A DNA stretch of 48,831 nt from Minisyncoccota bacterium (GCA_035545915.1 DASZXL010000022.1:1-48831); one strand, 5' to 3'; counted from the stretch's first letter, positions 1-22,630 are shown. A program made the numbers and translations. The notes: generated by a model from the sequence alone, not told the origin.

Positions 1-519
1 TCCACGGAAGAGCGCGGTGAATCGCGGGCGTTTCGGGACGGGTTCATAGAAAAAGTCGCGTTCGTCGACGCCTGAATACGATATGACGAGCTTTCTTCGG
101 GGCACGAGGAAGAGCCGGCTCACGTAGCGACATTGCGCTTCGCTCTCGAGGAGGACCTTGGACGAGAAATGGAATGAAAGAAGATCGATGATGTACGAGC
201 GGATTGCTTTCGCGCCGAGGAATCCGTATTCGCGGCGGGACACGACGTTCGCCTCCCACTGCGACGATACGGCATTGAATATGATCGGTTGTTTGATCGC
301 AAAACGGGCGCGAATAGCGAGGAGCGGAGAGGGGTAACCGACGATGATCGTGTCGTCTGGGCGCGCTTCGCGCTTAAGGCGCTCGATCAGGCTCTTGTAT
401 GAAAAAGCATCCTTCTTTTCGGCGATCTCAAGAACCTCATGATCGAGCTCGCGGAGGCCTTGTATCAGGTGAGTATCCTGCGTATACAGGTTTTCGGTAT
501 TAAGGTAGAGGAATCTCAT
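1..519 (-). CDS. Glycosyltransferase, GT-B fold (GT4/GT1-like), N-terminal part; 3' end runs off the left window edge
   Basis: Absent from the supplied ORF track because it is edge-truncated. Manual minus-strand translation from the ATG at 519-517 gives MRFLYLNTENLYTQDTHLIQGLRELDHEVLEIAEKKD...KLVISYSGVDERDFFYEPVPKRPRFTALFRG, with no stop through position 1. The layout resembles the N-terminal Rossmann half of GT4 enzymes. It is divergent from the methyltransferase at 582. Confidence 0.55.
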   Translation of the reverse strand, partial: MRFLYLNTENLYTQDTHLIQGLRELDHEVLEIAEKKDAFSYKSLIERLKREARPDDTIIVGYPSPLLAIRARFAIKQPIIFNAVSSQWEANVVSRREYGFLGAKAIRSYIIDLLSFHFSSKVLLESEAQCRYVSRLFLVPRRKLVISYSGVDERDFFYEPVPKRPRFTALFRG

Positions 520-530
520 TCGTGGCTTTA

Positions 531-536
531 AATATA
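531..536 (-). promoter_or_regulatory. -10-like box TATATT, 11 nt upstream of the ATG at 519 (short or absent leader)
   Basis: Plus-strand aatata is TATATT on the minus strand. The gap to the start codon has no SD-like purine run. Confidence 0.35.
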
Positions 537-567
537 GCATCAAATCTGCTACCATTCTCTCATCTCG

Positions 568-573
568 TATTAT
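568..573 (+). promoter_or_regulatory. -10-like box TATTAT, 8 nt upstream of the ATG at 582 (candidate leaderless mRNA)
   Basis: The sequence reads cgTATTATctctagccATG, with no SD in the gap. Confidence 0.4.
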
Positions 574-581
574 CTCTAGCC

Positions 582-1202: not shown

Positions 1203-1203
1203 C

Positions 1204-2343
1204 ATGAAGCGTCGTCTCTTCCTCATATTTCACGGCAGGTTTCCGGGGGAGAAGGCCGCATCGCTTTTTGCCGCTAAAAGCGCCGAATCGTTCGCCGATG
1301 CAGGTCTTGATGTGACTATCCTCGTGCCGCGGCGTGCGGGCGTCGATAGCCAGAGCGCGTATGAATATTTCGGCGTAAAGAAGAATTTTTCTGTGGTTGA
1401 GCTCGATGCGACCGAATTGTCGTCTGTTTGGAAAAAGATATCGTTCTGGTTGAGCTATCGTTCCTTCGCAAAAAGCGTAAAGGCGTATATCGTCGCGCAT
1501 GCCGGTCCCGATGATATCGTGTATTCGAATGAGACATTGCCGCTCCTCGCCGCATCGTCCGTATCTGCGAACACGTTCTATGAGATGCATGATTTTCCCG
1601 AGAGCAAGCTTGCGCTCTTCGGCAGATTTTTGAAAAAAGTACGCTGGGTCTTGGTCCACAACACATGGAAGAGGGATAAGGTCGCCGAAATGTTCGGAAT
1701 ATCTCCTGATGCGATGCTCTGCGAGCCGAACGCCGTCGATATCGCGCAGTTTGATATATCGATGTCCAAGGAAGAGGCACGGAGGGAGCTCGGTCTACCG
1801 ATGGATAAAAAGATTGCTGTTTACACGGGACATCTCTATGGTTGGAAGGGCGTCGATACGCTCGCGAAGGCCGCCGACATGCTGAGTGACGATTTTGTCG
1901 TCGTATTCGTCGGCGGCACCCCTGCCGATATGGCGGCATTCAGGGCGAAATACGGCGCCTCGAAGCGCATCATGATAACGGGACATAAAAAGCATGCGGA
2001 AATTCCGATATGGCAGAAAGCCGCCGACGTGCTCGTATTGCCGAATTCTGGTAAAGAGGCCATATCGCTCTACTACACATCTCCGATGAAGCTTTTCGAA
2101 TACATGGCGAGCCGCCGCCCGATCGTCGCCTCGGATATTCCGTCCATACGCGAGATCGTCGATGGATCGTGCGCGTCTCTCGTGCTGGCTGACGATGCCA
2201 AGGCTCTTGCCGCGGCTATCCGCGAGCTTGCGAATGATGCGGGCAAATCCGCAACGCTTTCCGCCGCCGCCTTTCAAAAGGTCAGCGACCATACATGGGA
2301 TAAACGCGCCTCCCGCATAATCGATTTCGTAGAAAAGAGATGA
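1204..2343 (+). CDS. Glycosyltransferase family 4-like (GT-B)
   Basis: 379 aa. The C-terminal signature is GKEAISLYYTSPMKLFEYMASRRPIVASDIPSIREIV (an EX7E-type motif). The gene starts 1 nt after the upstream stop and ends in an ATGA overlap with the next gene. Confidence 0.85.
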   Translation: MKRRLFLIFHGRFPGEKAASLFAAKSAESFADAGLDVTILVPRRAGVDSQSAYEYFGVKKNFSVVELDATELSSVWKKISFWLSYRSFAKSVKAYIVAHAGPDDIVYSNETLPLLAASSVSANTFYEMHDFPESKLALFGRFLKKVRWVLVHNTWKRDKVAEMFGISPDAMLCEPNAVDIAQFDISMSKEEARRELGLPMDKKIAVYTGHLYGWKGVDTLAKAADMLSDDFVVVFVGGTPADMAAFRAKYGASKRIMITGHKKHAEIPIWQKAADVLVLPNSGKEAISLYYTSPMKLFEYMASRRPIVASDIPSIREIVDGSCASLVLADDAKALAAAIRELANDAGKSATLSAAAFQKVSDHTWDKRASRIIDFVEKR

Positions 2344-3752
2344 AGAATATCTGGTCCCGCTACAAGATAGAGATAATTATATTCCTCATCGCCCTTGTCG
2401 CGCGGCTCGCTCTTTTCGGCGTCGTGTTCGCGCACAACGACGCGAATCTGCTCGATACCATTCATGGAGATGACGGCTACTACGAATTGTCTCAGGGTAT
2501 TTTAAATGGTCATGGCATGACATGGGACGTAGCGCCGCCATTTGATCCGAATCCTTTGCGCCCGCCGGTCTGGCCCTATCTCATCGCATTCTTCGCAGGC
2601 ACATTTGGAACGTATTGGGCCGTATTCATCTTTGAAGTCATCCTTGGTGCATCGATACCCGTTCTCGCATATCGTCTCGGTGGCATGATATTCGGGCGGC
2701 GCATAGGGAAGTGGATTGCGGGCATCATGTGCGTCGAGCCGTACCTCATGCTTTTCTCCATCATCCTCTATACCGAGACGTCGTTCATGTTCTTTTTCCT
2801 TATATCCCTCATATTCCTATTCAGGTATATCGAAAAACCGACCATGCGCGGAGGGCTTTTCTTCGGTCTTACGCTCGGTATCGCGACCATGGTGAAACCG
2901 ACGGTGGAATATGCGCCGATACTCGTTCCGATAGCTCTCGCTATCATGTGGCGCGCGCGATTCAAAGGGGAAGAGGGAAGGCGCTTTTTAAAAGAATTTG
3001 TTAAGCAATCCGTCATTTTCCTCTGTGCCTTTCTCATCGTCATAGCGCCCTGGCTCTATAGGAATCACGAGACATTCGGCGTCTGGGGCATGAGCGCCCA
3101 GCCCGCTTTCAATCTCTATGTGTATCTCGTGCCGACAATCCTTGCTATCGATAAGGGGACGAATTTTCAGACCGAATATCAGTCATTCGTAAAGGCTAGC
3201 GGCTTTGACGAGAATTCGATCACACTTGCCAATGGAGAGATCTATAAGTCCCGCGCGTTTGATGTGATACGTGATCATAAGGTCGCGCTCGTGAAGTCGG
3301 CCCTTATTACAGCTGTTACATTCTTTACCCACGACGGAATGCTCACGTTCCTCGGCTATTCGGGCGTATCGATACCGAATGTCGTATCGAAGCCCGCGAT
3401 ACAGCTCCTCGCGCACCCGATCGAACTTGCCAGGACGATGTGGGCATATGCGACGAGTCCCGCAGTTCTTATCATCCTTATGCGCCTATTCTGGATCGTC
3501 GTAACGCTCTTCTTCGTATTCGGAGCATACCGATATATCCGGAGGGAAGGGGCGAAGTCCGCAGCCATTATGGCGCTCCTCGTCATACTCTATTTTGCGG
3601 CTACGACGGCGATCAACGGCTTCGGCGTGAATGCCCGATTCAGGATGCCGGTCGACGCTCTTATCCTCGGCTTCGCATTGTTTGGACTTTTCTCTTTAAA
3701 AAGTCATAATACTCGAACTGAAATCGCCCCTGAAATCGCTCGCGCCCGATGA
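2340..3752 (+). CDS. Polytopic GT-C membrane glycosyltransferase (ArnT/PMT_2-like, GT39/GT83-type)
   Basis: 470 aa with many hydrophobic helices. The first-loop motif HGDDGYYELSQGILNGHG is typical of ArnT/PMT-like enzymes. ATGA start/stop overlaps occur at both ends (2340-2343 and 3749-3752). Confidence 0.65.
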   Translation: MKNIWSRYKIEIIIFLIALVARLALFGVVFAHNDANLLDTIHGDDGYYELSQGILNGHGMTWDVAPPFDPNPLRPPVWPYLIAFFAGTFGTYWAVFIFEVILGASIPVLAYRLGGMIFGRRIGKWIAGIMCVEPYLMLFSIILYTETSFMFFFLISLIFLFRYIEKPTMRGGLFFGLTLGIATMVKPTVEYAPILVPIALAIMWRARFKGEEGRRFLKEFVKQSVIFLCAFLIVIAPWLYRNHETFGVWGMSAQPAFNLYVYLVPTILAIDKGTNFQTEYQSFVKASGFDENSITLANGEIYKSRAFDVIRDHKVALVKSALITAVTFFTHDGMLTFLGYSGVSIPNVVSKPAIQLLAHPIELARTMWAYATSPAVLIILMRLFWIVVTLFFVFGAYRYIRREGAKSAAIMALLVILYFAATTAINGFGVNARFRMPVDALILGFALFGLFSLKSHNTRTEIAPEIARAR

Positions 3753-5317
3753 AGCTTTCTATCGTAATCCCTGTATATAACGAGGATAAGACGCTCGAAG
3801 AGATCCTTTCGCGCTCTCTTGCGGTAGCTATACCTGGCTGGACGACCGAGATCGTTGTCGTCGACGATGCATCGACTGACCGCACGTCAGCTATTTTGAA
3901 GGGGCACGGCTCGAAGATAAAAGCCGTGAGGCTCGATACGAATTCCGGCAAGGGCACGGCAGTCATGCGCGGCCTCTCTGAAGCGACGGGCGACTATATC
4001 GTCATACAGGACGCCGATCTCGAATATCATCCGAAGGAGATCCCGTCTCTCGTAGCTTTGATAGGAGAGCAGGGCGCTGGCTCCAAAGGCGCCGTCGTCT
4101 ACGGCTCTCGCAATCTCTATCACGAGAAGCGCGAAGGCTTCATATTCCAGCGTCTCGGCGTTTGGATCATAACCAAGATCATCAATACGCTCTATGGCGC
4201 CAAGCTCACTGACGTATGGACGTGCTACAAGCTTTTCCCGGCGGACGCTAAAAAGCATTTCGTGCCAGGGCGATTCGAAGCAGAGCTTCTCTTCACCGCG
4301 GCTCTCTTGCGCGACGGATACGATATAAAAGAAGGTCCTATATCGCATGCCCCGCGTTCAGCCGCGGAAGGGAAGAAGATTCGCTATCGCGACGGCTTTC
4401 GTGCCATCCAGCTCCTCCTCGCCGACAGGCTCGGCAACCTGAAGAAGCCCGAGATCCACATGACGGGCGATCATTCGCGCATAATCTGTTGTCCTTTCTG
4501 CAAGGCGGATCTCCTCAGGACCGAAGCCGGTCTCATATGCAAAAAGCATGGCCATTTTATGGTCGATGAGGCACAGCGGCCGATCCTCATCGAAAAAGAG
4601 GTCTACGAGCGCAATACCGACCAGCATGAATCGGGCGTGAACTGGCTCAAGTCGTTTTTCAAGCAGTGGCCGAAGTTCTATTATGCCCTCTGGCATTATG
4701 CTTGCCCGGTCATGATGCTCGTGAACGGCCCGCGCATGATACTCGACAGGGTAGAGGAGGGGGCGATCGTCATCGATGTCGGCTCTGGCCCTGAGCGCCT
4801 CGGCAAGGAATTCCTCAATGTCGATGTATTTCCGTTCCCCGAAGTAGACATTGTCTCAGACGCGACTCAGTTGCCGTTTAAAAACGATTCTATCGACGGG
4901 GCGGTGTCTGAATCCCTTTTCGAGCATGTGCCTGATGCCCACAAAGTCGCTCGCGAGATGGTCCGCGTCGTGAAGCCGGGCGGTTACATATATGTCTCCG
5001 CTCCGTTCATGCATCCGTATCACGCGTCGCCTGACGATTTCAATCGCTGGACGGTATCGGGGCTCAAGCACATGTTCTCTGACCTCGAGATCGTCGAGGC
5101 GGGCGTGAGGTCAGGTCCGTGGTCGACGTTCCTCATGTTCCTCGCATACTGGCTCGGCGTCATATTCTCGTTCGGCTCCCGCAAGGCCGCGCCGTTCCTC
5201 GCGCACATATTCATGCTCGTACTCGGGCCCCTGAAATACCTCGACTATATCTTCGTCTATATGCCCGGGTCGGACGCTGTCGCGACGCATCTCTATATAC
5301 TGGGAAGGAAGAAATAG
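3749..5317 (+). CDS. Multidomain fusion: polyprenyl-phosphate GT2 (GtrB/DPM1/ArnC-like) + Trm112-like Cys motif + class I SAM methyltransferase + C-terminal transmembrane segments
   Basis: N-terminus: MKLSIVIPVYNEDKTLEEIL, VVVDDASTDRT, IVIQDADLEYHP (the GT2 DXD region). Middle: CCPFCKADLLRTEAGLICKKHGH. C-terminal half: VIDVGSGPERLG, FKNDSIDGAVSESLFEHVPD, VKPGGYIYVSAPF. Tail: hydrophobic WSTFLMFLAYWLGVIFSF...FMLVLGPL. Confidence 0.75.
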   Translation: MKLSIVIPVYNEDKTLEEILSRSLAVAIPGWTTEIVVVDDASTDRTSAILKGHGSKIKAVRLDTNSGKGTAVMRGLSEATGDYIVIQDADLEYHPKEIPSLVALIGEQGAGSKGAVVYGSRNLYHEKREGFIFQRLGVWIITKIINTLYGAKLTDVWTCYKLFPADAKKHFVPGRFEAELLFTAALLRDGYDIKEGPISHAPRSAAEGKKIRYRDGFRAIQLLLADRLGNLKKPEIHMTGDHSRIICCPFCKADLLRTEAGLICKKHGHFMVDEAQRPILIEKEVYERNTDQHESGVNWLKSFFKQWPKFYYALWHYACPVMMLVNGPRMILDRVEEGAIVIDVGSGPERLGKEFLNVDVFPFPEVDIVSDATQLPFKNDSIDGAVSESLFEHVPDAHKVAREMVRVVKPGGYIYVSAPFMHPYHASPDDFNRWTVSGLKHMFSDLEIVEAGVRSGPWSTFLMFLAYWLGVIFSFGSRKAAPFLAHIFMLVLGPLKYLDYIFVYMPGSDAVATHLYILGRKK

Positions 5318-5347: not shown

Positions 5348-6151
5348 TTACTTACCCGAATTCGTATCGGGGCTCGTCGCGGTGCCGGCGAGTATGCCGC
5401 CGTCGACCATGAGCTCGGAGCCGGTCGTATAACTCGATTCGTCGGATGCGAGGAAGAGGACGGCCTTGGCGACCTCTTCAGGAGTGCCGAAGCGCTTCAT
5501 CGGTATGTCAGCCGCGTACTTTTTGTGATTCTCCTCGAATGCCTTGCCCTCGCCGAGCATGCTCTTCCACATCGCCGTCATGATAGACGCAGGATGGACC
5601 GAATTGGCGCGAATAGGGTAGCCCTTAGCTGCGCAGTAGAGCGCGACTGATTTCGTATGGTTTCGGATGGCCGCCTTGGTCGACGCATATGCCGCGGCAA
5701 ACGGAACGCCGACGATCCCAGAGCGGGACGATATGTTCACGATCGATCCGCCGTTCTCTTTCATGAGCGGTATGGCGTATTTGCTGCCGAGGAATACGCT
5801 GTCGAGGTTGATGGCGTGTATCTTTCTCCAGTCATCGAGCGTCGCGTTCTCAGGATCTTGGGCGCCTTTGCCGAGGATGCCGGCATTGTTGACGAGGATG
5901 TTGAGGCGACCGAATTTTTTCTGGATAAGCGCCGCCGCTTCTTTCCACGAATCCTCATTCGATACGTCGAGGCGGATGTACGTGCCGCTGAGAATTGCTG
6001 CTTCCTCGGCGCCCTTCTCGTCGTTCACGTCCGCGATGACGATGTCCGCGCCTTCGCGCGAGAGGAGCGACGCTATGGCGAGCCCGATACCGTCGGCTCC
6101 GCCCGTGACCAATGCGACTTTACCCACGACCCTTCCGTTTAGATTATTCAT
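5348..6151 (-). CDS. Short-chain dehydrogenase/reductase (SDR, FabG/glucose-1-dehydrogenase-like)
   Basis: 267 aa. Motifs: GKVALVTGGADGIGLA (TGxxxGxG), NNAGI, and YASTKAA (catalytic YxxxK). Confidence 0.85.
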   Translation of the reverse strand: MNNLNGRVVGKVALVTGGADGIGLAIASLLSREGADIVIADVNDEKGAEEAAILSGTYIRLDVSNEDSWKEAAALIQKKFGRLNILVNNAGILGKGAQDPENATLDDWRKIHAINLDSVFLGSKYAIPLMKENGGSIVNISSRSGIVGVPFAAAYASTKAAIRNHTKSVALYCAAKGYPIRANSVHPASIMTAMWKSMLGEGKAFEENHKKYAADIPMKRFGTPEEVAKAVLFLASDESSYTTGSELMVDGGILAGTATSPDTNSGK

Positions 6152-6414: not shown

Positions 6415-7338
6415 TTAATAGGTGCGAAGCTCGCTATAGGTATTGTCGAAGTAGGTCGTTTTGCCGGCATAGTATGACCAATCCATCGGACCTTTTTTGG
6501 CGATGATATGGGGGATATTCCCGTGCCATGCGGCGAACGCGCCGAAACTCGAATCAGACCCTATGATTGCGTCTGTGTAGGAGAGGAGGAAGAGATCGAC
6601 GACCGAATTCTCCTTGGATACGTATATGTTTAGGTCGGCGAATTTCGAAGGATCGATTGGTCCGTCAGACGCGATCACGAATGCCGTCTTCGCGTCGACG
6701 AGGCCGTTCTCGTCTATGTATTCCTCCGCGATCTCGCGGAAGAGTTCCTGCGACACGAGGTATTTGCCGCCCTTGAACGTCGCATAGTCGCTCTGGCGTA
6801 TGTGAAGGCCGATGATCCGGTCGTAGCTCTTGCGGAGAGGCGCCATGATGGTATCAACTCGCTGGAGAATCTGATCAGTTGGTTTGAATGCCGCACGGAG
6901 CGCGTCCGCGTGCTTCGCGAAGCCCGCAGGGTTCCTAAAGAGCCAGCCTGTCGTATAGAGGCGCGCGCAGGCGTCATATCGCGCGGGCAATGCCTCTGAT
7001 GGCGGCAAAAGAACTATCTTATTCTCTGAATTCTCGGACGAATACACAGAGCGGGCGCACAGTTTTTTGGCGAGAGCCGCATAGAGAGCGTATTTGAACC
7101 TCTGATTACGCGATATCCAGCTGCTTCGTCTCCTTGGTTTCAAAAAGAAGAGCGACCGGAGCTTGGTTATCGCACCTTCGTCCTTCAGAAATCTAAAGAA
7201 GCGGTGATATTCGTAGAATGAAGGGTTTCGGACGGGGACGTTCGCGTCTATGCCGTAGGCAAGCACGCTCGCGTAATTCCAGAGCTGGTTCGCGAGTTCG
7301 CCGCCGCCGTGCTTCAGGATGACGATGCGCTTGATCAT
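6415..7338 (-). CDS. GT11-like glycosyltransferase (alpha-1,2-fucosyltransferase family-like)
   Basis: 307 aa. RIVILKHGGGELANQLWNYA resembles the GT11 GGLGNQMFQYA motif. GLHIRQSDY resembles HVRRGDY. DLFLLSYTDAIIGSDSSFGAFAAW resembles the C-terminal GT11 motif. Confidence 0.55.
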   Translation of the reverse strand: MIKRIVILKHGGGELANQLWNYASVLAYGIDANVPVRNPSFYEYHRFFRFLKDEGAITKLRSLFFLKPRRRSSWISRNQRFKYALYAALAKKLCARSVYSSENSENKIVLLPPSEALPARYDACARLYTTGWLFRNPAGFAKHADALRAAFKPTDQILQRVDTIMAPLRKSYDRIIGLHIRQSDYATFKGGKYLVSQELFREIAEEYIDENGLVDAKTAFVIASDGPIDPSKFADLNIYVSKENSVVDLFLLSYTDAIIGSDSSFGAFAAWHGNIPHIIAKKGPMDWSYYAGKTTYFDNTYSELRTY

Positions 7339-8066
7339 GATCGTATCTTTTCGATGATGTCTCTTTGGCGCTCGACGGGGAAGAAGAATCGGTTCTCGGA
7401 CGAGCCGTCGTAGGGCTGCTCGGCATAGCCGCGCTCCTTGAGGAGGGACAGGAGGAATGCCGCGTTCGGGCCTTTGACCTCTATGAAGAGGATGGGACGA
7501 AGCGACGCGAGCGTCTTTTCAGCACCCTTGAATACCGAGAGTTCGTGGCCTTCGGTATCGCATTTGATGAGATCGAGCCTGGCGATGCCGCGCGTGGCGA
7601 CGAATGCGTCGACGGTGTCTACATGCACGCTCTCCGTTTCAGAGGCGCTCTCGCTCGGCTCGAATGACGCCATCTGGGTATATCGGCCGATGGTGCTCAC
7701 GGGTATGGCGAGCTCTTTGTCTCCCGCCGCGTCAGAGAAGGCGATATTCTGGGGAATGATATCAGATACCTTGCTCGCGACGCCGCGGAGGACGCCGAAC
7801 ATGCGACTCTGCGGCTCGAAAGCGAATACTTTTCCCGCGCCGCAGACCTTGGCGAAGAAATAGCTCAGTTCGCCGCGGTTGGCGCCGATGTCGAATACGA
7901 CCGAGTCTTTGCCGAGGGCTTTCGCGAGCGGCGCGAGCTCTTTCTCGGCGAGGCTATAGTTTCTATCCCATCGGCCGACCCAGCGCTTTCCCTGAAGATA
8001 CTGGAAAGGGCCGAAGGGCGTGAGTTTCTCAACGACTTTCGATTTAATGCGGCTGAGGGCGATCAT
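7335..8066 (-). CDS. FkbM-family SAM-dependent methyltransferase
   Basis: 243 aa. Motifs: VFDIGANRGELSYFFA and IDLIKCDTEGHELSVFKGAEKTL (the FkbM signature). ATGA overlaps occur at both ends. Confidence 0.8.
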   Translation of the reverse strand: MIALSRIKSKVVEKLTPFGPFQYLQGKRWVGRWDRNYSLAEKELAPLAKALGKDSVVFDIGANRGELSYFFAKVCGAGKVFAFEPQSRMFGVLRGVASKVSDIIPQNIAFSDAAGDKELAIPVSTIGRYTQMASFEPSESASETESVHVDTVDAFVATRGIARLDLIKCDTEGHELSVFKGAEKTLASLRPILFIEVKGPNAAFLLSLLKERGYAEQPYDGSSENRFFFPVERQRDIIEKIRS

Positions 8067-8830
8067 GCGTTTATGAAATGATAGAGTCCGGTGCCGAAGC
8101 CTTTCTTCGGGTCGTACGCAGACTCGACGTTCCTGCCGTATATGTACCTCTCCTCCGCGAGCTCGAGTTCCTTGAAGAGTCCCATGACGCGCGCGCGGGT
8201 GAATGCGCGATGGGCATTGAAGTAGGTCTTATCCTCCGCGTCGACAGGCACGGATATATAGAGCGAGCCTCCGCGGGCGAGCACGCGCGACAATTCCGCC
8301 GATGCCTTCTCGGTGCCGAATTGGTCGAGGGGGTCACCGTAGCGTCCGAGGCCGATATGTTCGATGACGCAAATGGATGAGAGCGAGGATATCTCGCCGT
8401 CTTTGAACGGCAGCCTTGTGATATCGCCTTCGATGAACGAAAGCCCTGGAAGGGAGATCGACAGCGGACGGATGTCGATCATAGTCGTCGGCGTGAACTG
8501 AGATATGATGCCGACCATGAGCGCCTGCGAGGCTATGTCGTAATGGCGGGCAGGCTTCGCTTCGAAGACTTTCTTGGCGCACCAGCATCCTTGGATGAAA
8601 TAGACGGGATCGATCTCATGAGAGTCGGTCTTGTCGTGTATCCGGGGGAAGAGATCCGCGGTCGAGAGCTTGTACGCAGAATTCCGCGCGAGCTTCTGGT
8701 ATTTCCGATAATCAGAAAGGTATGACGCGAGATTCTTCGCGCGAGCGGAGAGCGAAGGCTTTATGCGGAATGCGCGCGCCGCGACGACGGCGTATTTCAG
8801 TATCGATATGGATTTAAGCTTCTCTTTCAT
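8063..8830 (-). CDS. Class I SAM-dependent methyltransferase (DUF268-like)
   Basis: 255 aa. Motifs: CVIEHIGLGRYGDPLD and LARGGSLYISVPV. Confidence 0.65.
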   Translation of the reverse strand: MKEKLKSISILKYAVVAARAFRIKPSLSARAKNLASYLSDYRKYQKLARNSAYKLSTADLFPRIHDKTDSHEIDPVYFIQGCWCAKKVFEAKPARHYDIASQALMVGIISQFTPTTMIDIRPLSISLPGLSFIEGDITRLPFKDGEISSLSSICVIEHIGLGRYGDPLDQFGTEKASAELSRVLARGGSLYISVPVDAEDKTYFNAHRAFTRARVMGLFKELELAEERYIYGRNVESAYDPKKGFGTGLYHFINA

Positions 8831-14606: not shown

Positions 14607-14655
14607 GCATTTCGCATCGCGGGCGACGTATGGCGGATTACAGGAAAAGTGCTAC

Positions 14656-14661
14656 TATAAT
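14656..14661 (+). promoter_or_regulatory. -10 box TATAAT, 9 nt upstream of the ATG at 14671 (candidate leaderless)
   Basis: The sequence reads gctacTATAATcgtacttttATG. Confidence 0.45.
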
Positions 14662-14670
14662 CGTACTTTT

Positions 14671-15702
14671 ATGAAAGCAGCAATCCTCGAGACCATAAAC
14701 GGTCCTCTTATCATCGACGATATCGAGCTCACCGACCTCGCGTTCGGACAGGTGCTCGTCAAGATATTGGTCTCCGGCCTCTGTGGCTCTCAGCTTCAGG
14801 AGATCGCTGGCAATAAAGGCAATGCCAAATTCGTGCCCCATCTCCTCGGCCACGAAGGCTGCGGCATTGTCGAGAAAGTCGGTCCCGGCGTGACCAAGGT
14901 AAAACCGGGCGACAAGGTCATCATGCACTGGAGGAAAGGCGAAGGCATCGAGGCCGATTTCCCGACATATATATGGAAGGGCAAGCCGATGCGAAGCGGC
15001 AAGGTGACCACGCTCTCCGAATATTCGGTCGTGTCGGAGAACAGGGTGACCCCTGTTCCTCAGGATACTCCTGAGGAACTCTGCGCCCTTCTCGGCTGCA
15101 GCCTTTCGACCGCTCTCGGTCTCATCGACAATGAATCTGAGCTGAAGCTCGGCGAGAGCTTTATGACCATGGGTGTGGGCGGTCTCGGCGTCAACCTCAT
15201 CAAGGCCGCCAAGCTCGCGGGCGCGCATCCGATCATCGCCGTCGACATCCATGACCACAAGAAAGACACGGCCCTCGAGGTCGGCGCGGACCTTTACATA
15301 AACGCGGCTACTCAGTCGATCAAAGACGAGCTCGGCAAGCTTGGCCTCAAAGACGTCCATGTCATTGTCGACTGCACGGGTAGCAAGAAGGCGATCGAGG
15401 ATTCCATGCAGCTCCTCTCGGGTATCGGCCGCTTCGTCATGCTCGGCCATCCGAAGCCCGGCGAGTCGATCGAGATCAAGAACGCTAATCATTTCTTCGA
15501 AGGTGAGGGCAAATCCATGCGCGCGACGCAGGGCGGCAGGTTCCACCCGACGCGCGATATCCCGCGCTACGTGAGTCTCCATAAGAGCGGCAAGCTCAAC
15601 ATCGACAAGATCATCACTCATCGCCTCAAGCTCAATCAGATAAACGAAGCCATCGACCTCGTCAGGAAGGGCGGCGCGAGCCGCATATTGATAGAGATGT
15701 AA
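14671..15702 (+). CDS. Zn-dependent medium-chain (MDR) alcohol dehydrogenase family protein
   Basis: 343 aa. Motifs: [35 protein letters not shown], and the Rossmann motif GVGGLGVN. The structural-Zn Cys cluster appears to be absent. Confidence 0.85.
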
Positions 15703-15715
15703 CTCTGGCCCTGTC

Positions 15716-16669
15716 ATGAAGTCGAACCTCCTTCACGCATTCAAGACCATGACCTCGATCCGCGTCGCGGAAGAGGAGATCGCGAAATATTACCTCGAGA
15801 ACAAGGTAATGAGCTTCGTCCATTTCTACGTGGGCCAAGAAGCTGTCGCTGTGGGCGTCTGTGACGCATTGGCACCCGAAGATCGCGTCATGGGCAACCA
15901 TCGATCGCATGGCCACTATCTAGCCAAAGGCGGCGACTTGAAGGCTATGGTCTGCGAGCTCCTCGGCAAGGCCGAGGGCTGTTGCAAAGGAAAGGGCGGC
16001 TCGATGCACATGATAGACAAGTCGGTGAATTTCATCGGTTCGACGCCGATACTCGGCTCCGTCGTGCCGCTCGCGAACGGCAGTGCATTCGAGCAGCGAT
16101 ATTCAAAGGCCAAGGGCCTCACCGCGGCATTCTTCGGCGATGGTGCGTTTGAAGAAGGTGTTGTGTATGAGACGCTCAACCTGGCGGCCCTTTTCAAAAA
16201 TCCGCTTCTTCTCGTCGTCGAAAACAATCTCCACTCGGTCAATTCCAAGCTCCGCGACAGGCGATCTGCTGAACATAATGTCGAGAATATCGTCACAGGT
16301 TTCGGCGTTAAATATCTGAAGGCCGACGGTCTCGACTATGAAGACGTCCTCGCGAAGGCTTCTGAAGCTGTAACGTACATTCGCGCGGGCAAAGGTCCTG
16401 TCGTTTTGGAATGTGTGACGTTTCGCCACATGGCTCACAGCGCGCCGATCTTCGACGAGAACTATCGCGAGGAGGACGTGCTCGAGAAGCGCGTCGAAAA
16501 GGACTCGGTCAAAAAAGTGCGCGCCGCTCTGGTAAAGCAGGGCGTCGCCGAAGCCGAGCTCGCTAAGATCGAAACGGACGCCCGCGCGCATGCGATCGAC
16601 TGCATCAAATACGCGGCGACCGCTCCGTATCCGGCCAAGGAGACTCTTTATACCGACGTATTCGCATAA
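15716..16669 (+). CDS. ThDP-dependent 2-oxoacid/acetoin dehydrogenase E1 component, alpha subunit-like
   Basis: 317 aa. The ThDP motif GDG-26 residues-NN is present (FFGDGAFEEGVVYETLNLAALFKNPLLLVVENN). FRHMAHS corresponds to the YRxxGHS region. Confidence 0.8.
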   Translation: MKSNLLHAFKTMTSIRVAEEEIAKYYLENKVMSFVHFYVGQEAVAVGVCDALAPEDRVMGNHRSHGHYLAKGGDLKAMVCELLGKAEGCCKGKGGSMHMIDKSVNFIGSTPILGSVVPLANGSAFEQRYSKAKGLTAAFFGDGAFEEGVVYETLNLAALFKNPLLLVVENNLHSVNSKLRDRRSAEHNVENIVTGFGVKYLKADGLDYEDVLAKASEAVTYIRAGKGPVVLECVTFRHMAHSAPIFDENYREEDVLEKRVEKDSVKKVRAALVKQGVAEAELAKIETDARAHAIDCIKYAATAPYPAKETLYTDVFA

Positions 16670-16673: not shown

Positions 16674-17714
16674 ATGGCTGAACGCATCATTAAATATACC
16701 GAGGCTCTGAAGGAAGCGACAGACCAGATGATGGAGGTCGATCCGAGGGTCTGCGTGCTCGGCCTCGGCGTATCGTATAAAAACGGCGCCGACGGCACGA
16801 CGGCGGGGCTCAAGGCGAAATATCCCGACCGCGTCCTCGACGTGCCGGTGTCCGAGGCGGGTATCACGGGCATGGCCGTCGGCGCGGCCATCGCCGGCAT
16901 CCATCCGATCGTCCATCACGGACGCCTCGAATTCGCCATCCTTGGCGCGGACGCCATGTTCACGCAGGCGGCGAAATGGAATTACATGTTTGGCGGCGGC
17001 AATCCGGTTCCCGTCGTGTTCCGCATCAACATCGGCCGTCAGTGGGGCAATGGTCCTCAGCACACGCAGGCCTTCTATTCGCTCTTCGGCAACACCGTCG
17101 GTCTCAAGGTCGTCATTCCGTCGTCGCCGCGCATGGCGAAAGGCCTCCTCGTCTCCGCGCTCCGCGACAAGAATCCCGTCGTCATCCTCGAGCCGCGCTG
17201 GCTTTTCAATATAAAACAGGATGTCCCGACGGAGATATTCGCTGAGCCTCTCGATAAGGCGCAGGTCGTCGCGAAGGGAAATGATGTCACGATCGTTTCG
17301 TACGGCGATGGACTTCTCGCTGCGCGCGAGGCTCTCGATATCATCGGCGACAAGGCATCTGTCGAGCTTGTCGACCTTGTGAGTATCAATCCGATCGATT
17401 ATCCGACTGTGCTTACCTCTATAAAAAAGACCGGACGCCTCATCACCATCGACACGACCAACGAAGCATTCAACATCGGTTCCGAAATCATCGCCGCTGT
17501 AGGGAAGGACCAGTCGATCAAGCTCAAGACCGCGCCTGTCACGCTATCATGCCCGAACGTGCCGATCCCGACGTCGACAGCCCTCACCAAATCCGTATAT
17601 CCGACCAAGGTAGATGTCGCGAATGCCGTGCTCAAGCTTCTCGGCAAAGGGGAAGTAGGTACGAAGCTCTCGTTCGAAGGGCTCCATATCGCGCCAGGCA
17701 TCACGCTTATTTAA
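16674..17714 (+). CDS. ThDP-dependent dehydrogenase E1 component, beta subunit-like (transketolase-like Pyr + C-terminal domains)
   Basis: The track ORF starts at 16590 and overlaps the alpha subunit. The ATG at 16674 (MAERIIKYTEALKEA) lies 4 nt after the alpha stop and is preferred. Motif: VLDVPVSEAGITGMAVGAAIAGIHPIV. Confidence 0.8.
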   Translation: MAERIIKYTEALKEATDQMMEVDPRVCVLGLGVSYKNGADGTTAGLKAKYPDRVLDVPVSEAGITGMAVGAAIAGIHPIVHHGRLEFAILGADAMFTQAAKWNYMFGGGNPVPVVFRINIGRQWGNGPQHTQAFYSLFGNTVGLKVVIPSSPRMAKGLLVSALRDKNPVVILEPRWLFNIKQDVPTEIFAEPLDKAQVVAKGNDVTIVSYGDGLLAAREALDIIGDKASVELVDLVSINPIDYPTVLTSIKKTGRLITIDTTNEAFNIGSEIIAAVGKDQSIKLKTAPVTLSCPNVPIPTSTALTKSVYPTKVDVANAVLKLLGKGEVGTKLSFEGLHIAPGITLI

Positions 17715-18249
17715 CCGCCTTCACGAGATAGTGGTGCGGCTTCAGTTCGTTCCTGCCGAAATGGATGATCTCGGCGGATGAGAATCCCTTGAAAAGCTCG
17801 CCGAGGCCCTGGCGGGTGAAGCGCCAATAGTCGCCGTACTCTTCGCCGTGAAGTTCGGCAGAAAAGGGGGTTGATATAAACGCACGACCCTCTGGGGCGA
17901 GGACGCGGTGGATCTCCGCAGCAGCCCTAAAAGGATCCTTCACGTGTTCGAGAACCTCAAAACAAAATATGGCGTCGAACTCTCCGTCCTTGAACGGCGT
18001 GGCGAGGATGTCGCCGCGCACGTCAGCTTTGCCCATCTGATCCATAGTCGTCACATCTCTGAAATTATCCTTAGCCCACGATCCGTAGGCCGAACCGATG
18101 TCGAGTATCTTACCCGAGAGGTCTTTCGGGATATGCGCATAGAGTTCCGGCCTGTCGCCATTCTTGCCGTAGGTATATTCGGTCATGTCGACTTTATAGA
18201 GTCGGTGACCCGTCAGCTTGAATATGATGTTGTTGATGAAAAGCTTCAT
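17707..18249 (-). CDS. Class I SAM-dependent methyltransferase
   Basis: 180 aa. Motifs: ILDIGSAYGSW, FDAIFCFEVLEHVKDP, LAPEGRAFISTPF. Its 3' end overlaps the convergent E1-beta gene by 8 nt. Confidence 0.8.
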   Translation of the reverse strand: MKLFINNIIFKLTGHRLYKVDMTEYTYGKNGDRPELYAHIPKDLSGKILDIGSAYGSWAKDNFRDVTTMDQMGKADVRGDILATPFKDGEFDAIFCFEVLEHVKDPFRAAAEIHRVLAPEGRAFISTPFSAELHGEEYGDYWRFTRQGLGELFKGFSSAEIIHFGRNELKPHHYLVKAVK

Positions 18250-19524: not shown

Positions 19525-19533
19525 ATGCGTGGT

Positions 19534-20376
19534 TTAGAGTATGTCGGCGAAATAGCGCTCGACCTTCTTGAAATAGATCGTGCCGATGATGAGGACGACG
19601 AGGCAGACCGAAAACGACAGGCCGAGGAGCGTCCAGTTGACCGGCGTCGTGCCGAGGAGCGCCGCCCGCGCCGACTGAATAACGCCCGTCATCGGGTTGA
19701 GGGCGAGGAGCCACGAAAATTTGCCCGCGATCGACGCAGGATATATGACGGGCGTGAGGAAGAGGAGTATCTGGATGAAGAACGGTAGCGCGTGGCGGAC
19801 GTCGCGGTATTTGACGTTCACCGCGGCAAGGAAGAGGCCGCCGCCGACGGATGCCATGAATGCGATAGCGAGGAGCACTGGCAGGAGCCAGAGTCCGGCG
19901 AAATGAGGCACGAATCCGTAATAGAGCATGAGGCCGACGAGTACGATCGCCGCGACCCCGAAGTCGACGAGCTTGGTGATCACGCCGCTTATCGGCAGGA
20001 TGAGGCGAGGGAAGTAGACCTTGGTTATGATCGGCTGGTTCGATATGAGGGTATTCGACGTCTCGGTGAGCGCGCCCGAGAAGAACTGCCAGAAGAGGAG
20101 GCCGACATAGACGAATATGGGATACGGCACCCCGTCGGAAGGCACCTGCGCAAGCTGGCCGAAGAACACGCTGAACACTACCATCGTGATGAGCGGCTGG
20201 AGGAGTGCCCAGAGGACGCCGATGAGTGTTTGTTTATAGCGGACTTTGAGGTCGCGCCAGGTAAAGAAATAGAGGAGCTCGCGATATCGCCAGAGCTCCC
20301 TCATGTCCTCCCATGAAAAGGTCTTCTTCGGGCGGATGATGGTCGTGGGGGCAGTCATACCGGTGCAGTCTATCAT
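19534..20376 (-). CDS. wzm: ABC-2 type polysaccharide exporter permease (Wzm/TagG-like)
   Basis: 280 aa with 6 hydrophobic segments. Motif: WRYRELLYFFTWRDLKVRYKQTLIGVLWALLQPL. Confidence 0.8.
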   Translation of the reverse strand: MIDCTGMTAPTTIIRPKKTFSWEDMRELWRYRELLYFFTWRDLKVRYKQTLIGVLWALLQPLITMVVFSVFFGQLAQVPSDGVPYPIFVYVGLLFWQFFSGALTETSNTLISNQPIITKVYFPRLILPISGVITKLVDFGVAAIVLVGLMLYYGFVPHFAGLWLLPVLLAIAFMASVGGGLFLAAVNVKYRDVRHALPFFIQILLFLTPVIYPASIAGKFSWLLALNPMTGVIQSARAALLGTTPVNWTLLGLSFSVCLVVLIIGTIYFKKVERYFADIL

Positions 20377-20439
20377 TTTTATGCGCTGTTTGTAATCGTT
20401 GGCCGGCGGAAAACGTTACAAATAGGCCGTGCCCTGTGA

Positions 20440-20445
20440 TATATT
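20440..20445 (+). promoter_or_regulatory. -10-like box TATATT, 7 nt upstream of the ATG at 20453 (candidate leaderless)
   Basis: The sequence reads gtgaTATATTtgaatccATG. A possible -35 TTACAA lies 18 nt upstream. Confidence 0.4.
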
Positions 20446-20452
20446 TGAATCC

Positions 20453-22630
20453 ATGACGCTCAACACCATATTGAAACGAACGGCCGTCGCTAGTGTCTTC
20501 GCGGTATTTATCATCCCTTTCATCGTACCCGGCAACATGTTCTTCCCGTTCATCACGGGCAAGGGCTTCCTGTTTAGGGCGTTCGTCGAGATAGGCTTCG
20601 CGGCATGGCTCCTTCTGTCGCTTCGCGACGCCTCGGCGCGGCCTCGTAAGTCATGGATGCTCTGGGCGTTCGTCGCGTTCGTCGGCGTGATCGGAATAGC
20701 CGACATATTCGGCGTGAATCCGTGGAAGAGCTTCTGGTCTAATTTCGAGCGTATGGAAGGCTATATCACCATCCTCCACCTCTTCCTCTATTTCATCGTC
20801 GCTTCGGCAGTCCTTTCGACGGAAAAACTCTGGAAGCGATTCCTCGAATGGTCGGTATGGTCGAGCTTCGCCATGACGCTCTATGGATTCGCCCAGCTCG
20901 GCGGCGTGTTCCAGATCAATCAGGGCGGCGTCCGCGTCGACGGTACGTTCGGCAATGCGACGTATCTCGCCATATATATGGTGTTCAATATCTTCTTCGC
21001 GCTCATTCTCGTGAACCGCGATAAGGCGATATGGAAGAGGGTATCGTACGGCATCATCGCTTTCTTGAATTTCATCATCCTCTACCACACGGCTACCCGA
21101 GGATCGATCCTCGGTCTTCTGGGCGGGCTTTTGCTCTCGGGTATTCTGATCGCCGCCTTCGACAAAGGTGAAAAGAAGCTTCGTATCGTGGCTGCATCGA
21201 TCGTGGGAGCGGTGGTTCTCCTCGTCATCGGATTCATCGGCATCCGCCACACGTCATTCGTCACGGAGAGCCCGGTCCTCTCGCGCTTCGCGTCGATATC
21301 GTGGGCAGATACGCAGACGCAGGCTCGCGCATATATATGGCCGATGGCTATCGAAGGCTGGAAGGAGAGGCCGGTATTCGGCTGGGGCCAGGAGAATTTC
21401 AACTACATATTCAACAAGGATTACGATCCGCGCATGTATGCGCAGGAGCAGTGGTTCGATCATGCCCATAATTCGGTCCTTGACTGGCTCGTTGCGGGCG
21501 GGGTGCTCGGCCTTCTCGCGTATCTGTGGCTCTTCGGCGCGGCGATATGGCTCCTCTGGAAGAAGTCTGCCGATATTTCGTTTACGGAGAAAGCCTTGTT
21601 CACCGGCCTCGGCGCGGCGTATTTCTTTCATAACCTCTTCGTATTCGACAATATCGTGAGCTATATATTGTTCGGGTCGGTTCTCGCCTTTATCCATTTC
21701 AAGGCGACGAGGCTCGAAAAGCCGATCGGCGGCGATGCGCAGGAGATCGAGACTGACGACGTGAAGATGGCCGGCCCCATTGTCCTCGTCGCGCTCGCAT
21801 TCGCTCTCTGGTTCTTCAACTGGCGCGGATACGAGACGAATATCTACCTCATAGACGCGCTTCGAGCGTCTTCGGTATCGCCGGTGCAGGGGCAGGCCGC
21901 TCTCGACGCATTCGTCCGCGCGGCGTCATACGATACGCTCGGCAGGCCTGAATTAGTCGAGAGGGTGGTGACCGCCGTACCCGCGATGAATAACAACGCC
22001 GTCTCTCTCGATGTGCGTCAGAAGTTCGCCGAGTTCGCCAAGGGTCTCGTCGATACGCAGATCCAGCGCTCGCCGGGCGATGCCCGTTACGAGACGTTCG
22101 CCGGCACGTTCTATGCCTCGTACGGCCAGACAGCCGATGCTGAGAAACATTTTGTCGCCGCGGCCGAGCTCTCGCCGAAGAAGCAGACCATCCTCTTTCA
22201 GGTCGGTAGCTTCTATCTGTCGTCCAAGCAGTCCGACAAGGCCATAGCCGCATTCAAGACCGCGTATGATCTTGATCATTCGTACGCTGATGCGGCGCGA
22301 TACTACGCTATGTCGCTCGTCTATGCCGGTCGCGAGACCGATGCACGGGCCGTTCTCCAGGGCGCGGGCCTCGATTCCTCCATGGCCGACGATGATTTCC
22401 TTCGCGCATATATCGATAGCGGCAATTGGGCCAAGGCTATCGCTCTCTTGAAGGCGCGCATCGTCGCGAATCCTAAGGATACGTCGAGCATGCAGAATCT
22501 CGCAGGCGTCTATTATCAGTCGGGCAATAAGGCCATGGCCGTCCTTATGTTCAGGCAAATAGAGGCTGTCGATCCGAGTCTCAAGCCGCAGATCGATCAA
22601 TATATTCAGGCTATTCAGAACGGCCAGTAA
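20453..22630 (+). CDS. O-antigen ligase/polymerase-family (Wzy_C/WaaL-like) membrane protein with C-terminal TPR repeats
   Basis: The track ORF starts at a GTG (20429); the ATG at 20453 is preferred. Motifs: YHTATRGSILGLLGG, GWGQENFNYIF and WFDHAHNSVLDWLVAGGVLGLL (the WaaL-type H-x-H-N region). The C-terminal ~250 aa are TPR-like (e.g. AEKHFVAAAELSPKK, AIAAFKTAYDLDHSYADA). Confidence 0.75.
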   Translation: MTLNTILKRTAVASVFAVFIIPFIVPGNMFFPFITGKGFLFRAFVEIGFAAWLLLSLRDASARPRKSWMLWAFVAFVGVIGIADIFGVNPWKSFWSNFERMEGYITILHLFLYFIVASAVLSTEKLWKRFLEWSVWSSFAMTLYGFAQLGGVFQINQGGVRVDGTFGNATYLAIYMVFNIFFALILVNRDKAIWKRVSYGIIAFLNFIILYHTATRGSILGLLGGLLLSGILIAAFDKGEKKLRIVAASIVGAVVLLVIGFIGIRHTSFVTESPVLSRFASISWADTQTQARAYIWPMAIEGWKERPVFGWGQENFNYIFNKDYDPRMYAQEQWFDHAHNSVLDWLVAGGVLGLLAYLWLFGAAIWLLWKKSADISFTEKALFTGLGAAYFFHNLFVFDNIVSYILFGSVLAFIHFKATRLEKPIGGDAQEIETDDVKMAGPIVLVALAFALWFFNWRGYETNIYLIDALRASSVSPVQGQAALDAFVRAASYDTLGRPELVERVVTAVPAMNNNAVSLDVRQKFAEFAKGLVDTQIQRSPGDARYETFAGTFYASYGQTADAEKHFVAAAELSPKKQTILFQVGSFYLSSKQSDKAIAAFKTAYDLDHSYADAARYYAMSLVYAGRETDARAVLQGAGLDSSMADDDFLRAYIDSGNWAKAIALLKARIVANPKDTSSMQNLAGVYYQSGNKAMAVLMFRQIEAVDPSLKPQIDQYIQAIQNGQ

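Follow-up and report, generated by a model that had tools for sequence, protein, structure and literature searches.

A predicted hypervariable surface-glycan island with Wzm/Wzt export and a conserved Wzy_C-type transferase in a Paceibacteria bacterium

A stretch of 48,831 nucleotides (contig DASZXL010000022.1, positions 1-48831; Minisyncoccota bacterium, assembly GCA_035545915.1) is referred to here as the window, and its first 22,630 nucleotides are almost filled by genes for a surface glycan. The system described below combines glycosyltransferases (GTs), S-adenosylmethionine (SAM)-dependent methyltransferases, a Wzm/Wzt ATP-binding cassette (ABC) transporter, and a polytopic transferase with a Wzy_C domain and C-terminal tetratricopeptide repeats (TPRs), which we call the Wzy_C-TPR protein. 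Open reading frames (ORFs) were listed, the plausible genes of the whole window were scanned against Pfam, and selected genes were also scanned against NCBIfam. Synteny was assessed by tblastn of the window proteins against 168 related loci; neighborhood counts refer to 80 relatives of the Wzy_C-TPR gene, with 33-73% identity, or, for the neighbors of the GT4 gene at 1204, to a set of 81 relatives. Twenty-one genes were recognized in 1-22630, one truncated by the left edge and the others in five transcription units (A to E) of alternating orientation, and a conserved backbone follows on the right.

1-519, minus, left edge: GT4-type GT, divergent, N-terminal 173 codons, open from the ATG at 519 and continuing beyond the window; weak Glyco_transf_4 match
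582-1202, plus, unit A: SAM methyltransferase; Methyltransf_11, 44 bits; Methyltransf_23; ORF open from GTG 522
1204-2343, plus, unit A: GT4 glycosyltransferase, the left frame gene; Glycos_transf_1, E 1.6e-21
2340-3752, plus, unit A: polytopic GT-C glycosyltransferase, PMT_2/ArnT-like; PMT_2, 47.6 bits; nine hydrophobic segments; ATGA overlaps at both ends
3749-5317, plus, unit A: fusion of an N-terminal GT2 (Glycos_transf_2, E 8e-31) with a C-terminal SAM methyltransferase (Methyltransf_11, 47 bits)
5348-6151, minus, unit B: classical short-chain dehydrogenase (SDR); adh_short_C2, E 4e-65; NCBIfam glucose 1-dehydrogenase subfamily above cut-off
6415-7338, minus, unit B: fucosyltransferase-type GT-B glycosyltransferase (GT11-like); HIRQSDY motif, homologs, and fold
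7335-8066, minus, unit B: FkbM-family SAM methyltransferase; Methyltransf_21, 72 bits; TCAT overlaps at both ends
8063-8830, minus, unit B: DUF268/Methyltransf_11 SAM methyltransferase; DUF268, 47 bits; Methyltransf_11, 23.8 bits
8827-9678, minus, unit B: GT2; Glycos_transf_2, E 6e-25
9680-10534, minus, unit B: GT2; Glycos_transf_2, E 4e-26
10531-11694, minus, unit B: probable GT4-like GT-B (weak call); Glycos_transf_1, E about 2e-4 to 3e-4, below the gathering score
11687-13495, minus, unit B: AsnB-type glutamine amidotransferase; Asn_synthase, E 3e-86; GATase_7; TIGR01536 above cut-off
13497-14591, minus, unit B: GT9 (heptosyltransferase)-like GT-B core (about residues 1-235) with a C-terminal alpha/beta domain; by fold
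14671-15702, plus, unit C: Zn-dependent medium-chain alcohol dehydrogenase (ADH); ADH_N and ADH_zinc_N; orthologs 62-69% identical beside E1 genes
15716-16669, plus, unit C: thiamine diphosphate (ThDP)-dependent E1 alpha-like subunit; E1_dh, E 3e-61
16674-17714, plus, unit C: E1 beta-like subunit; Transket_pyr and Transketolase_C; ORF open from 16590
17707-18249, minus, unit D: small SAM methyltransferase (180 residues), last gene of the wzm-wzt-methyltransferase unit; Methyltransf_23, 57 bits; Methyltransf_11, 56 bits
18265-19524, minus, unit D: Wzt, ABC ATPase with a C-terminal glycan-binding domain; ABC_tran, 84.5 bits; Wzt_C, 36.6 bits (cut-off 30.4), residues 274-388
19534-20376, minus, unit D: Wzm, ABC-2 permease; ABC2_membrane, 65.9 bits; at least five hydrophobic segments
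20429-22630, plus, unit E: polytopic Wzy_C (WaaL/PglL-family) transferase with C-terminal TPR, the right frame gene; Wzy_C, 87.5 bits
22655-26900, plus, following unit E: conserved backbone past the island (murB, secA, and a DedA/VTT-family membrane protein); Pfam and synteny; not part of the island

A tightly coupled glycan locus had been proposed by a first reading of this DNA made without database searches (the sequence-only reading), and both the Pfam gene content and the coordinates bear it out. The ATGA/TCAT overlaps at 2340, 3749, 7335, 8063, 8827, and 10531 are all exact, as is the 8-nt overlap at 11687-11694; a gap of 264 nt separates the SDR gene from the GT11-like gene upstream of it. 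Hidden Markov model searches supported all methyltransferase domains and most GT calls, predicted folds provided evidence for two GTs that these models missed, and the linkage proved to be conserved across relatives, with the genes not scattered. The earlier placement of the beginning of the locus at position 1 has to be given up, as the divergent GT4 gene extends past the left end. A minus-strand ORF at 14638-15717 (359 aa) was rejected as a gene: it has no family match, lies antisense to the well-supported Zn-ADH gene, and is a shadow ORF that could be miscalled.

More than 539 relatives of the GT4 protein at 1204 were found among GTDB species genomes, with a top identity of 69%, and nearly all of them are labeled Patescibacteria, Paceibacterota, or Parcubacteria; the relatives of the Wzy_C-TPR gene give the same taxonomic picture. 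Based on these relatives, the window is assigned to a Paceibacteria bacterium of the candidate phyla radiation (CPR, Patescibacteria). Clear relatives of one or the other protein also occur in metagenome-assembled genomes labeled Gammaproteobacteria, Woesearchaeota, or Nitrospira (L062, L065, L075, and L106), which reflects either mis-binned contigs or horizontal gene transfer. Published Parcubacteria genomes lack lipid A/lipopolysaccharide (LPS) genes, with lpxC and kdsA absent (PMC5220378). The same genome analysis (PMC5220378) described approximately 20 glycosyltransferases, an unknown envelope structure, and no fatty-acid pathway; lipid synthesis of their own is generally doubted for CPR bacteria.

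The genes of 1-22630 recur in the relatives as blocks. One block consists of the divergent GT4 gene facing the GT4, GT-C, and GT2/methyltransferase genes, another of the GT11-like, FkbM, DUF268 methyltransferase, and GT2 genes, and a third of the GT2, GT4-like, and AsnB genes; the GT9-like gene stands head-to-head with the ADH, E1 alpha, and E1 beta genes in at least 10 loci, and the Wzy_C-TPR gene is divergent from Wzm and Wzt. Almost the whole gene set is found within 20 kb in a single relative (L082). At the left frame, the GT4 gene at 1204 adjoins the divergent GT4 gene in 16 of the 81 relatives and the GT-C gene in 29. At the right frame, the Wzy_C-TPR gene is followed downstream by SecA in 56 of the 80 relatives and by MurB in 28, and is preceded by Wzm/Wzt in only 14-15 of them. 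Upstream of this gene, L097 and L110 have no Wzm/Wzt and carry instead a Wzx-type flippase, an FkbM methyltransferase, and MBOAT, PMT_2, UbiA, and epimerase genes. The distance between the two frame genes is about 7 kb in some relatives and 18 kb here. Because conserved frame genes (GT4 at 1204 on one side, Wzy_C-TPR, murB, and secA on the other) enclose interchangeable contents, the region resembles a variable island of the O-antigen or capsule type, and 1-22630 appears to be most of one allele of a hypervariable surface-glycan island whose left edge lies outside the window.

The order Wzy_C-TPR, murB, secA, DedA/VTT is kept in the close relatives L090, L091, L093, L094, L095, and L097, with the DedA/VTT gene at 26334-26900 in the window. 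DedA-family proteins are implicated in undecaprenyl phosphate recycling, a role that would fit a link to glycan assembly. Additionally, the locus of another member of the Paceibacterota (L039, 11139-17929) encodes a Wzx flippase, a PhyH-like dioxygenase, a TagF-like glycerophosphotransferase, a CMP-sugar cytidylyltransferase, a methyltransferase, and NeuB at the chromosomal position of the present island, in place of Wzm/Wzt, a gene content that implies a putative nonulosonic-acid glycan in a CPR bacterium.

Extension of the contig to the left gained nothing: the exact GT4 protein occurs on just one public contig, of 4.8 kb (Logan), which begins at window position 7. In two relatives, L026 and L016, the island runs 6-8 kb to the left of the divergent GT4 gene and ends at a secreted lamin-tail protein, at 73-702 in L026 and at 69-1478 in L016, where it also carries a PKD domain. 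These flanks contain three or four more GT4 genes, methyltransferases, a cupin, a nucleoside diphosphate (NDP)-sugar epimerase/dehydratase, and an ORF resembling UDP-glucose/GDP-mannose dehydrogenases; this UDP-sugar dehydrogenase (ugd)-like ORF is in the island of L016. Pfam revealed neither a nucleotide-sugar synthesis gene nor an initiating phosphoglycosyltransferase in the window, in line with the sequence-only reading, which had placed precursor supply and initiation elsewhere, possibly to the left. The left flanks of L016 and L026 contain no initiating phosphoglycosyltransferase. A tblastn search with E. coli WcaJ, covering 2.89 Mb made up of the window and the 168 loci, gave a single match, in L057. 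With no initiating transferase in the window or in these left flanks, and a WcaJ-like match in L057 only, initiation is probably encoded elsewhere.

Nine GT genes were counted, seven with Pfam matches (two of them below threshold) and two by predicted folds, so that the earlier figure of at least eight stands. The truncated gene at the left edge belongs among them: its full-length orthologs in L026 and L016 match Glycos_transf_1 (E 3e-20 and 3e-17, respectively). The GT-C enzyme is predicted to act outside the membrane with a lipid-phosphate-sugar donor. Beside it, the GT2-methyltransferase fusion is 56-80% identical in relatives, and the top NCBIfam matches of its GT2 domain, all below cut-off, are AglJ, ArnC, PgfS, a Dol-P-hexose transferase, and PpgS. 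Since this GT2 domain ranks closest to polyprenyl-phosphate-sugar synthases and its gene is translationally coupled to the GT-C gene, extracytoplasmic side-chain addition is suggested. The weakly called GT4-like gene at 10531 adjoins AsnB in relatives, at 32-64% identity.

The two GTs recognized by fold represent unannotated families. For the gene at 6415, which the sequence-only reading had called GT11-like, there was no Pfam match even at E up to 10 and none in NCBIfam, and sequence and profile searches of the PDB returned nothing usable. GT11 membership would call for a match to Glyco_transf_11 (PF01531) and an HxRRxD-type motif; the motif read here is HIRQSDY. In all, 329 homologs were collected, some of which, at 45-67% identity, are PF01531-positive, and one of which, at 67% identity, is named alpha-1,2-fucosyltransferase. 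The AlphaFold model (predicted local distance difference test, pLDDT, 93.7) retrieved AtFUT1 with Foldseek at E 7e-9, as well as POFUT1, FUT8, and NodZ; the fold thus resembles the GT37, GT65, and GT23 fucosyltransferases. Because of the PF01531-positive homologs, the HIRQSDY motif, and the fucosyltransferase-type GT-B fold of the model, the label GT11-like is fair at the superfamily level, although the protein matches no such family in Pfam or NCBIfam itself. The other, GT9-like protein (13497) is a GT that the earlier reading had left unnamed. Single-sequence and profile searches yielded no Pfam (E up to 10), NCBIfam, or PDB match, and its 285 homologs, which share a core of about 235 residues, are all hypothetical proteins. 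Its model (pLDDT 85.5) matched WaaF (1psw; E 4e-5) and TibC in Foldseek, with a probability of 1.0 but a TM-score of only 0.39. Some members of the family (P0205, P0232) are fused to haloacid dehalogenase (HAD) phosphatase domains (PF13419, PF00702, PF08645, and PF13242), an arrangement reminiscent of the GmhB-type sugar-phosphate phosphatases of heptose pathways.

All five SAM-methyltransferase domains named by the sequence-only reading exceeded the Pfam gathering scores, and four of them (at 582, the C-terminus of 3749, 8063, and 17707) are paralogous, with 30-36% identity. For the gene at 582, ATG 582 is the likely start, which is also where the Logan gene call begins. Orthologs of the DUF268 methyltransferase, 58-76% identical, adjoin the GT11-like gene in 16 relatives. 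This density of methyltransferases is a recurrent trait, as relatives carry 4-5 such domains per approximately 20 kb. For at least one of the methyltransferases, capping and thereby terminating the chain is a more probable role than decorating the bulk polymer. By analogy the best candidate is that at 17707, because its gene directly follows wzt, as does wbdD in E. coli or wsaE in Geobacillus. A heavily methylated, amidated polymer is the prediction drawn from the gene content.

The amidation would be due to the AsnB-type amidotransferase, an assignment confirmed by Pfam, whose gene is syntenic with the GT4-like gene in relatives. AsnB is predicted to amidate a glycan carboxylate such as that of a uronic acid, given the ugd-like gene in the island of L016 and the asparagine synthase homolog in the S-layer glycan (slg) cluster of Paenibacillus alvei. 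The ThDP E1/dehydrogenase cassette was likewise recovered by Pfam as E1 alpha, E1 beta, and Zn-ADH, and the start of E1 beta is most likely ATG 16674 rather than 16590, judging from the sequence. The E1 alpha protein scores 300 bits against PDH_E1_alph_y, below the 394-bit cut-off, and Pfam found no E2 or E3 gene in the window, so that the cassette does not qualify as a pyruvate dehydrogenase complex. In at least 10 relatives, the GT9-like gene lies head-to-head with ADH, usually with the E1 genes next, inside glycan clusters. E1 alpha/beta-like pairs (Plm8/9, AviB1/B2, and YerE) are known to attach pyruvate-derived two-carbon branches to deoxysugars (PMC4802897). The SDR is a confirmed gene of the locus, but its membership in the system is improbable, since tblastn detected no syntenic ortholog in the related loci, and it is probably a passenger. 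As a nucleotide-sugar enzyme it was rejected, being of the classical FabG/glucose-dehydrogenase type rather than an extended SDR, and not syntenic.

The adjacent Wzm and Wzt genes, with a Wzt_C domain in the latter, agree with the ABC-transporter-dependent pathway assigned earlier; Wzt is 42-77% identical in relatives. There is no Wzx gene, as no Polysacc_synt match occurs in 1-22630 and the sole one detected by Pfam in the window is MurJ at 41398. The carbohydrate-binding module of Wzt recognizes a terminal modification (PMC11127046); the presence of Wzm and of a Wzt that has this C-terminal domain indicates ABC-transporter-dependent export with binding of such a modification by the ATPase.

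In the Wzy_C-TPR protein, the Wzy_C domain spans residues 210-366 and the TPR region approximately 540-720. A profile of the family matched 7TPG, the only solved WaaL structure (E 1.9e-6); the match covers the catalytic loop and aligns the conserved RG and HN positions (Arg, His). Hydropathy and charge bias place the loop 271-358 outside, followed by an ambiguous three or four membrane segments. The protein is predicted to be a terminal ligase or O-oligosaccharyltransferase (O-OTase). The earlier name, WaaL-like ligase, applies at the level of the Wzy_C family and is not claimed in the strict LPS sense: because published Parcubacteria genomes are devoid of lipid A/LPS genes, an LPS ligase is unlikely here, as is lipid A-core as the acceptor. 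Moreover, the gene stays in the same place across relatives that differ in island content and export route, which argues for a terminal transferase of relaxed specificity and not a repeat-unit-specific polymerase. Elsewhere in the window, directly upstream of murJ (41398-43089), lies a gene for a second polytopic protein with about 13 hydrophobic segments and a C-terminal TPR region (39031-41361, plus strand). It has no Wzy_C match in Pfam and weak similarity to the Wzy_C-TPR protein at the N-terminus and in the TPR region, and may be a paralogous glycan or cell-wall transferase.

The best explanation of these data, to which we assign a probability of roughly 0.6, is an island for the assembly and modification of one polymer, its export by Wzm/Wzt, and its transfer by the Wzy_C-TPR protein. 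An initiating enzyme whose gene lies elsewhere would provide a polyprenol-phosphate-linked primer (both lipid carrier and primer are assumed), and soluble transferases of the GT4, GT2, fucosyltransferase-like, and GT9-like types would extend it in the cytoplasm. Sugars would be modified by the FkbM enzyme and the paralogous methyltransferases, and the AsnB-type enzyme would amidate a carboxylate, probably a uronic acid. E1 alpha/beta and Zn-ADH may supply an unusual sugar, possibly one with a two-carbon branch taken from pyruvate and subsequently reduced, as the analogy with AviB1/B2, Plm8/9, and YerE/F suggests, and the linked GT9-like enzyme would transfer it. A terminal methyl cap, with the methyltransferase at 17707 as the best candidate enzyme, would end chain growth and be recognized by the C-terminal domain of Wzt, leading to export of the lipid-linked chain by Wzm/Wzt. 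Outside the membrane, GT-C may attach side-chain sugars, with the GT2-methyltransferase fusion as the source of its lipid-phosphate-sugar donor, and the Wzy_C-TPR enzyme would move the finished glycan to its acceptor. As to that acceptor, a secreted or surface protein is tentatively the single most likely candidate, favored because S-layer glycan clusters of Gram-positive bacteria are the nearest counterpart of this gene set; attachment to a lipid or to the cell wall is almost as probable and a strong rival. The lamin-tail proteins at the left border in L016 and L026 may be surface proteins, and it is conceivable that they are glycosylated.

Several results weigh against this explanation. E. 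coli WecA gave no tblastn match in the 2.89 Mb of the window plus the 168 loci, a search with limited sensitivity to distant WecA/MraY relatives. No S-layer, pilin, or other acceptor gene was recognized in the window, small ORFs included, and hydropathy, with three or four segments after the loop, does not fix the membrane side of the TPR domain. The GT2 domain at 3749 scores 52-77 bits against cut-offs of 325-529 for AglJ, ArnC, PgfS, and the Dol-P-hexose transferase, the fusion protein has no predicted membrane segment, and 1-22630 encodes no flippase of the GtrA or MATE type for a lipid-phosphate-sugar. Furthermore, AsnB exceeds the cut-off of the asparagine synthase equivalog and could be a housekeeping enzyme, and ADH with E1 alpha/beta also resembles an acetoin/butanediol module.

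These last points recur in an alternative that we regard as unlikely, namely that the 22.6 kb are a chance mosaic in a small genome, comprising a GT-C module, an ABC-exported polymer, an acetoin-type ADH/E1 operon, a housekeeping asparagine synthetase, and an SDR. The alternating orientation of the five transcription units, the non-syntenic SDR, the AsnB score above the asparagine synthase cut-off, the shuffling of blocks between relatives, and the occurrence of the GT4/GT-C/GT2-methyltransferase block in relatives without Wzm/Wzt nearby would all be expected of such a mosaic. However, modular shuffling is typical of glycan loci, AsnB consistently adjoins the GT4-like gene, and at least 10 relatives have the ADH/E1 genes head-to-head with the GT9-like gene within glycan clusters, with no E2/E3 component in the window. 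Less probable still is a role of the Wzy_C-TPR protein as a Wzy-type polymerase, or an envelope function of another kind, the glycan being released or kept as a lipid-linked capsule or exopolysaccharide with no dedicated ligation. Ligases and polymerases alike do carry the Wzy_C domain, 7TPG bears the entry name 'polymerase/ligase', and relatives with a Wzx flippase upstream would need a polymerase. Nevertheless, ABC-transporter-dependent pathways need no Wzy polymerase, and the protein, 33-73% identical among relatives, keeps its position regardless of island content and export route.

The most serious alternative retains the same machinery and changes the acceptor: the Wzy_C-TPR protein would ligate the polymer to a membrane glycolipid, lipid II, or peptidoglycan. 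The product would be a lipoglycan or a secondary cell-wall polymer, comparable to teichoic acids or to actinobacterial lipomannan/lipoarabinomannan (LM/LAM), and the trio of GT4, GT-C, and polyprenyl-phosphate-sugar synthase in 1204-5317 would take the roles of PimA/B, a GT-C mannosyltransferase, and Ppm1. We consider this possible yet somewhat doubtful. It is favored by the linkage of the Wzy_C-TPR gene to murB in 28 of 80 relatives, the second polytopic TPR protein directly upstream of murJ, the profile match to WaaL 7TPG, which is a lipid-acceptor ligase, the conserved arrangement of GT4, GT-C, and GT2, an inositol-monophosphatase-family gene in the left flank of L016, and the lack of any acceptor protein gene in the window. 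Conversely, we know of no Wzy_C enzyme that ligates to peptidoglycan, and a LytR-CpsA-Psr (LCP)-family ligase is not present, though none is needed under this model. TPR motifs accompany the protein-targeting O-OTases WsfB and PglL (PMC2943079), and the lack of a reported fatty-acid pathway (PMC5220378) constrains dedicated glycolipid anchors without excluding them.

Among known systems, the closest analogs of the proposed protein-directed pathway are the slg clusters of P. alvei CCM 2051T and Geobacillus stearothermophilus NRS 2004/3a. These comprise wzm, wzt, and a Wzy_C O-OTase, a C-terminal TPR motif being described for WsfB and PglL; in G. stearothermophilus, the GT-methyltransferase enzyme WsaE adds a 2-O-methyl cap that ends chain growth, and the clusters also include an asparagine synthase homolog (wsfA, P. 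alvei) and a polyprenol-phosphate-glucose synthase for side-chain addition (PMC2943079). The present locus shares with them a host that probably lacks LPS, wzm/wzt, a multidomain GT-methyltransferase enzyme, an asparagine synthase homolog, and tight packing with stop/start overlaps, and the possible counterpart of their polyprenol-phosphate-glucose synthase is a GT2 with a below-cut-off resemblance to such enzymes; the combination of Wzy_C with C-terminal TPR is as in WsfB/PglL, the comparison with WsaB/WsfB being based on their published description. In contrast, neither a WsaP/WsfP-type initiating transferase nor rml genes nor an S-layer gene lies in or beside this locus, which has five methyltransferase domains instead of one and adds the E1 alpha/beta, ADH, and GT9-like module and the GT-C enzyme.

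In the ABC-transporter-dependent O8/O9a-type O-polysaccharide pathway of E. coli, with WbdD as terminator and WaaL as ligase, the gene order is wzm-wzt-wbdD, and wecA likewise lies outside the locus. The present island is similar in having the methyltransferase gene directly after wzt, the initiating enzyme outside, Wzm and a Wzt with Wzt_C, and a ligase family matching WaaL 7TPG, and the cap-recognition logic (PMC11127046) would be shared. It differs in its host group, for which an absence of lipid A/LPS genes has been reported, in the TPR domain of the ligase, and in the candidate terminator, a 180-residue methyltransferase without a kinase or coiled-coil 'ruler'. The translational coupling of a GT2 gene to a polytopic GT-C gene recalls the three-component systems (GtrA/GtrB/GtrC, ArnC/ArnT, and Citrobacter GT136) for which the concept of extracytoplasmic glycosylation has been described (PMC11127046); however, here there is no flippase gene, the GT2 lacks a membrane segment and is fused to a methyltransferase, and its NCBIfam scores fall far short of the cut-offs. 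Like AviB1/AviB2, Plm8/Plm9, and YerE/YerF, unit C encodes a split E1 alpha/beta without E2/E3, among sugar genes and beside a reductase-type enzyme, whereas the window contains no NDP-4-keto-sugar pathway genes, such as a dehydratase, and the function here is putative; AviB1/AviB2 and Plm8/Plm9 further differ in serving an antibiotic and not a surface glycan in a CPR host. No prior description of such a CPR island was found in the literature, the coverage of which was incomplete, making this weak evidence of novelty.

The remainder of the window provided further observations. A class I ribonucleotide reductase is encoded at 34068-37956 (plus strand), with a large subunit carrying an ATP-cone and a small subunit. 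The TTG-started ORF of the latter (36880) overlaps the end of the large-subunit gene, so its true start is probably further downstream. A bacterial class A RNase P RNA lies at 38615-38896 on the minus strand (138 bits); with 282 nt spanning all 367 model positions, it is a markedly reduced version, and the ORFs listed within 38000-39000 are probably spurious. Genes for tRNA-Arg(CCT) and tRNA-Phe(GAA) occupy 46478-46550 and 46899-46974, both on the plus strand.

The pathway logic of ABC export, cap recognition, and transfer by a Wzy_C enzyme is already well known from O-antigen and S-layer glycan systems. The advance, therefore, concerns where the system occurs and how it varies rather than a new principle, and what has been added is the CPR origin, the structure of the island with a conserved terminal transferase, the fold-level naming of two GT families, and the slg-type analogy. 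The two unannotated families (GT9-like at 13497 and GT11-like at 6415) are hereby flagged, together with the E1/ADH module as a possible source of an unusual sugar. Most of the cell envelope of CPR/Patescibacteria is uncharacterized, and these bacteria are thought to live attached to other cells. The window and its 168 related loci offer a testable genetic model of a CPR surface glycan, consisting of two conserved frame genes, a hypervariable island with interchangeable export, and a conserved terminal transferase linked to secA/murB. A broader proposition, which we advance only speculatively, is that Paceibacteria, and perhaps CPR bacteria more widely, possess a class-wide glycan attachment system, in which a conserved Wzy_C-TPR protein of relaxed specificity, encoded beside secA/murB, places the product of the hypervariable island onto secreted surface proteins. 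If this is true, the island could use either Wzm/Wzt or Wzx, and its alleles would encode unexplored sugar chemistry, that of the present allele being a multiply methylated, amidated glycan with an E1/ADH-built sugar transferred by a previously unrecognized GT9-like family. A coat of this kind would form the main variable surface of these episymbionts and could govern host attachment and phage susceptibility.

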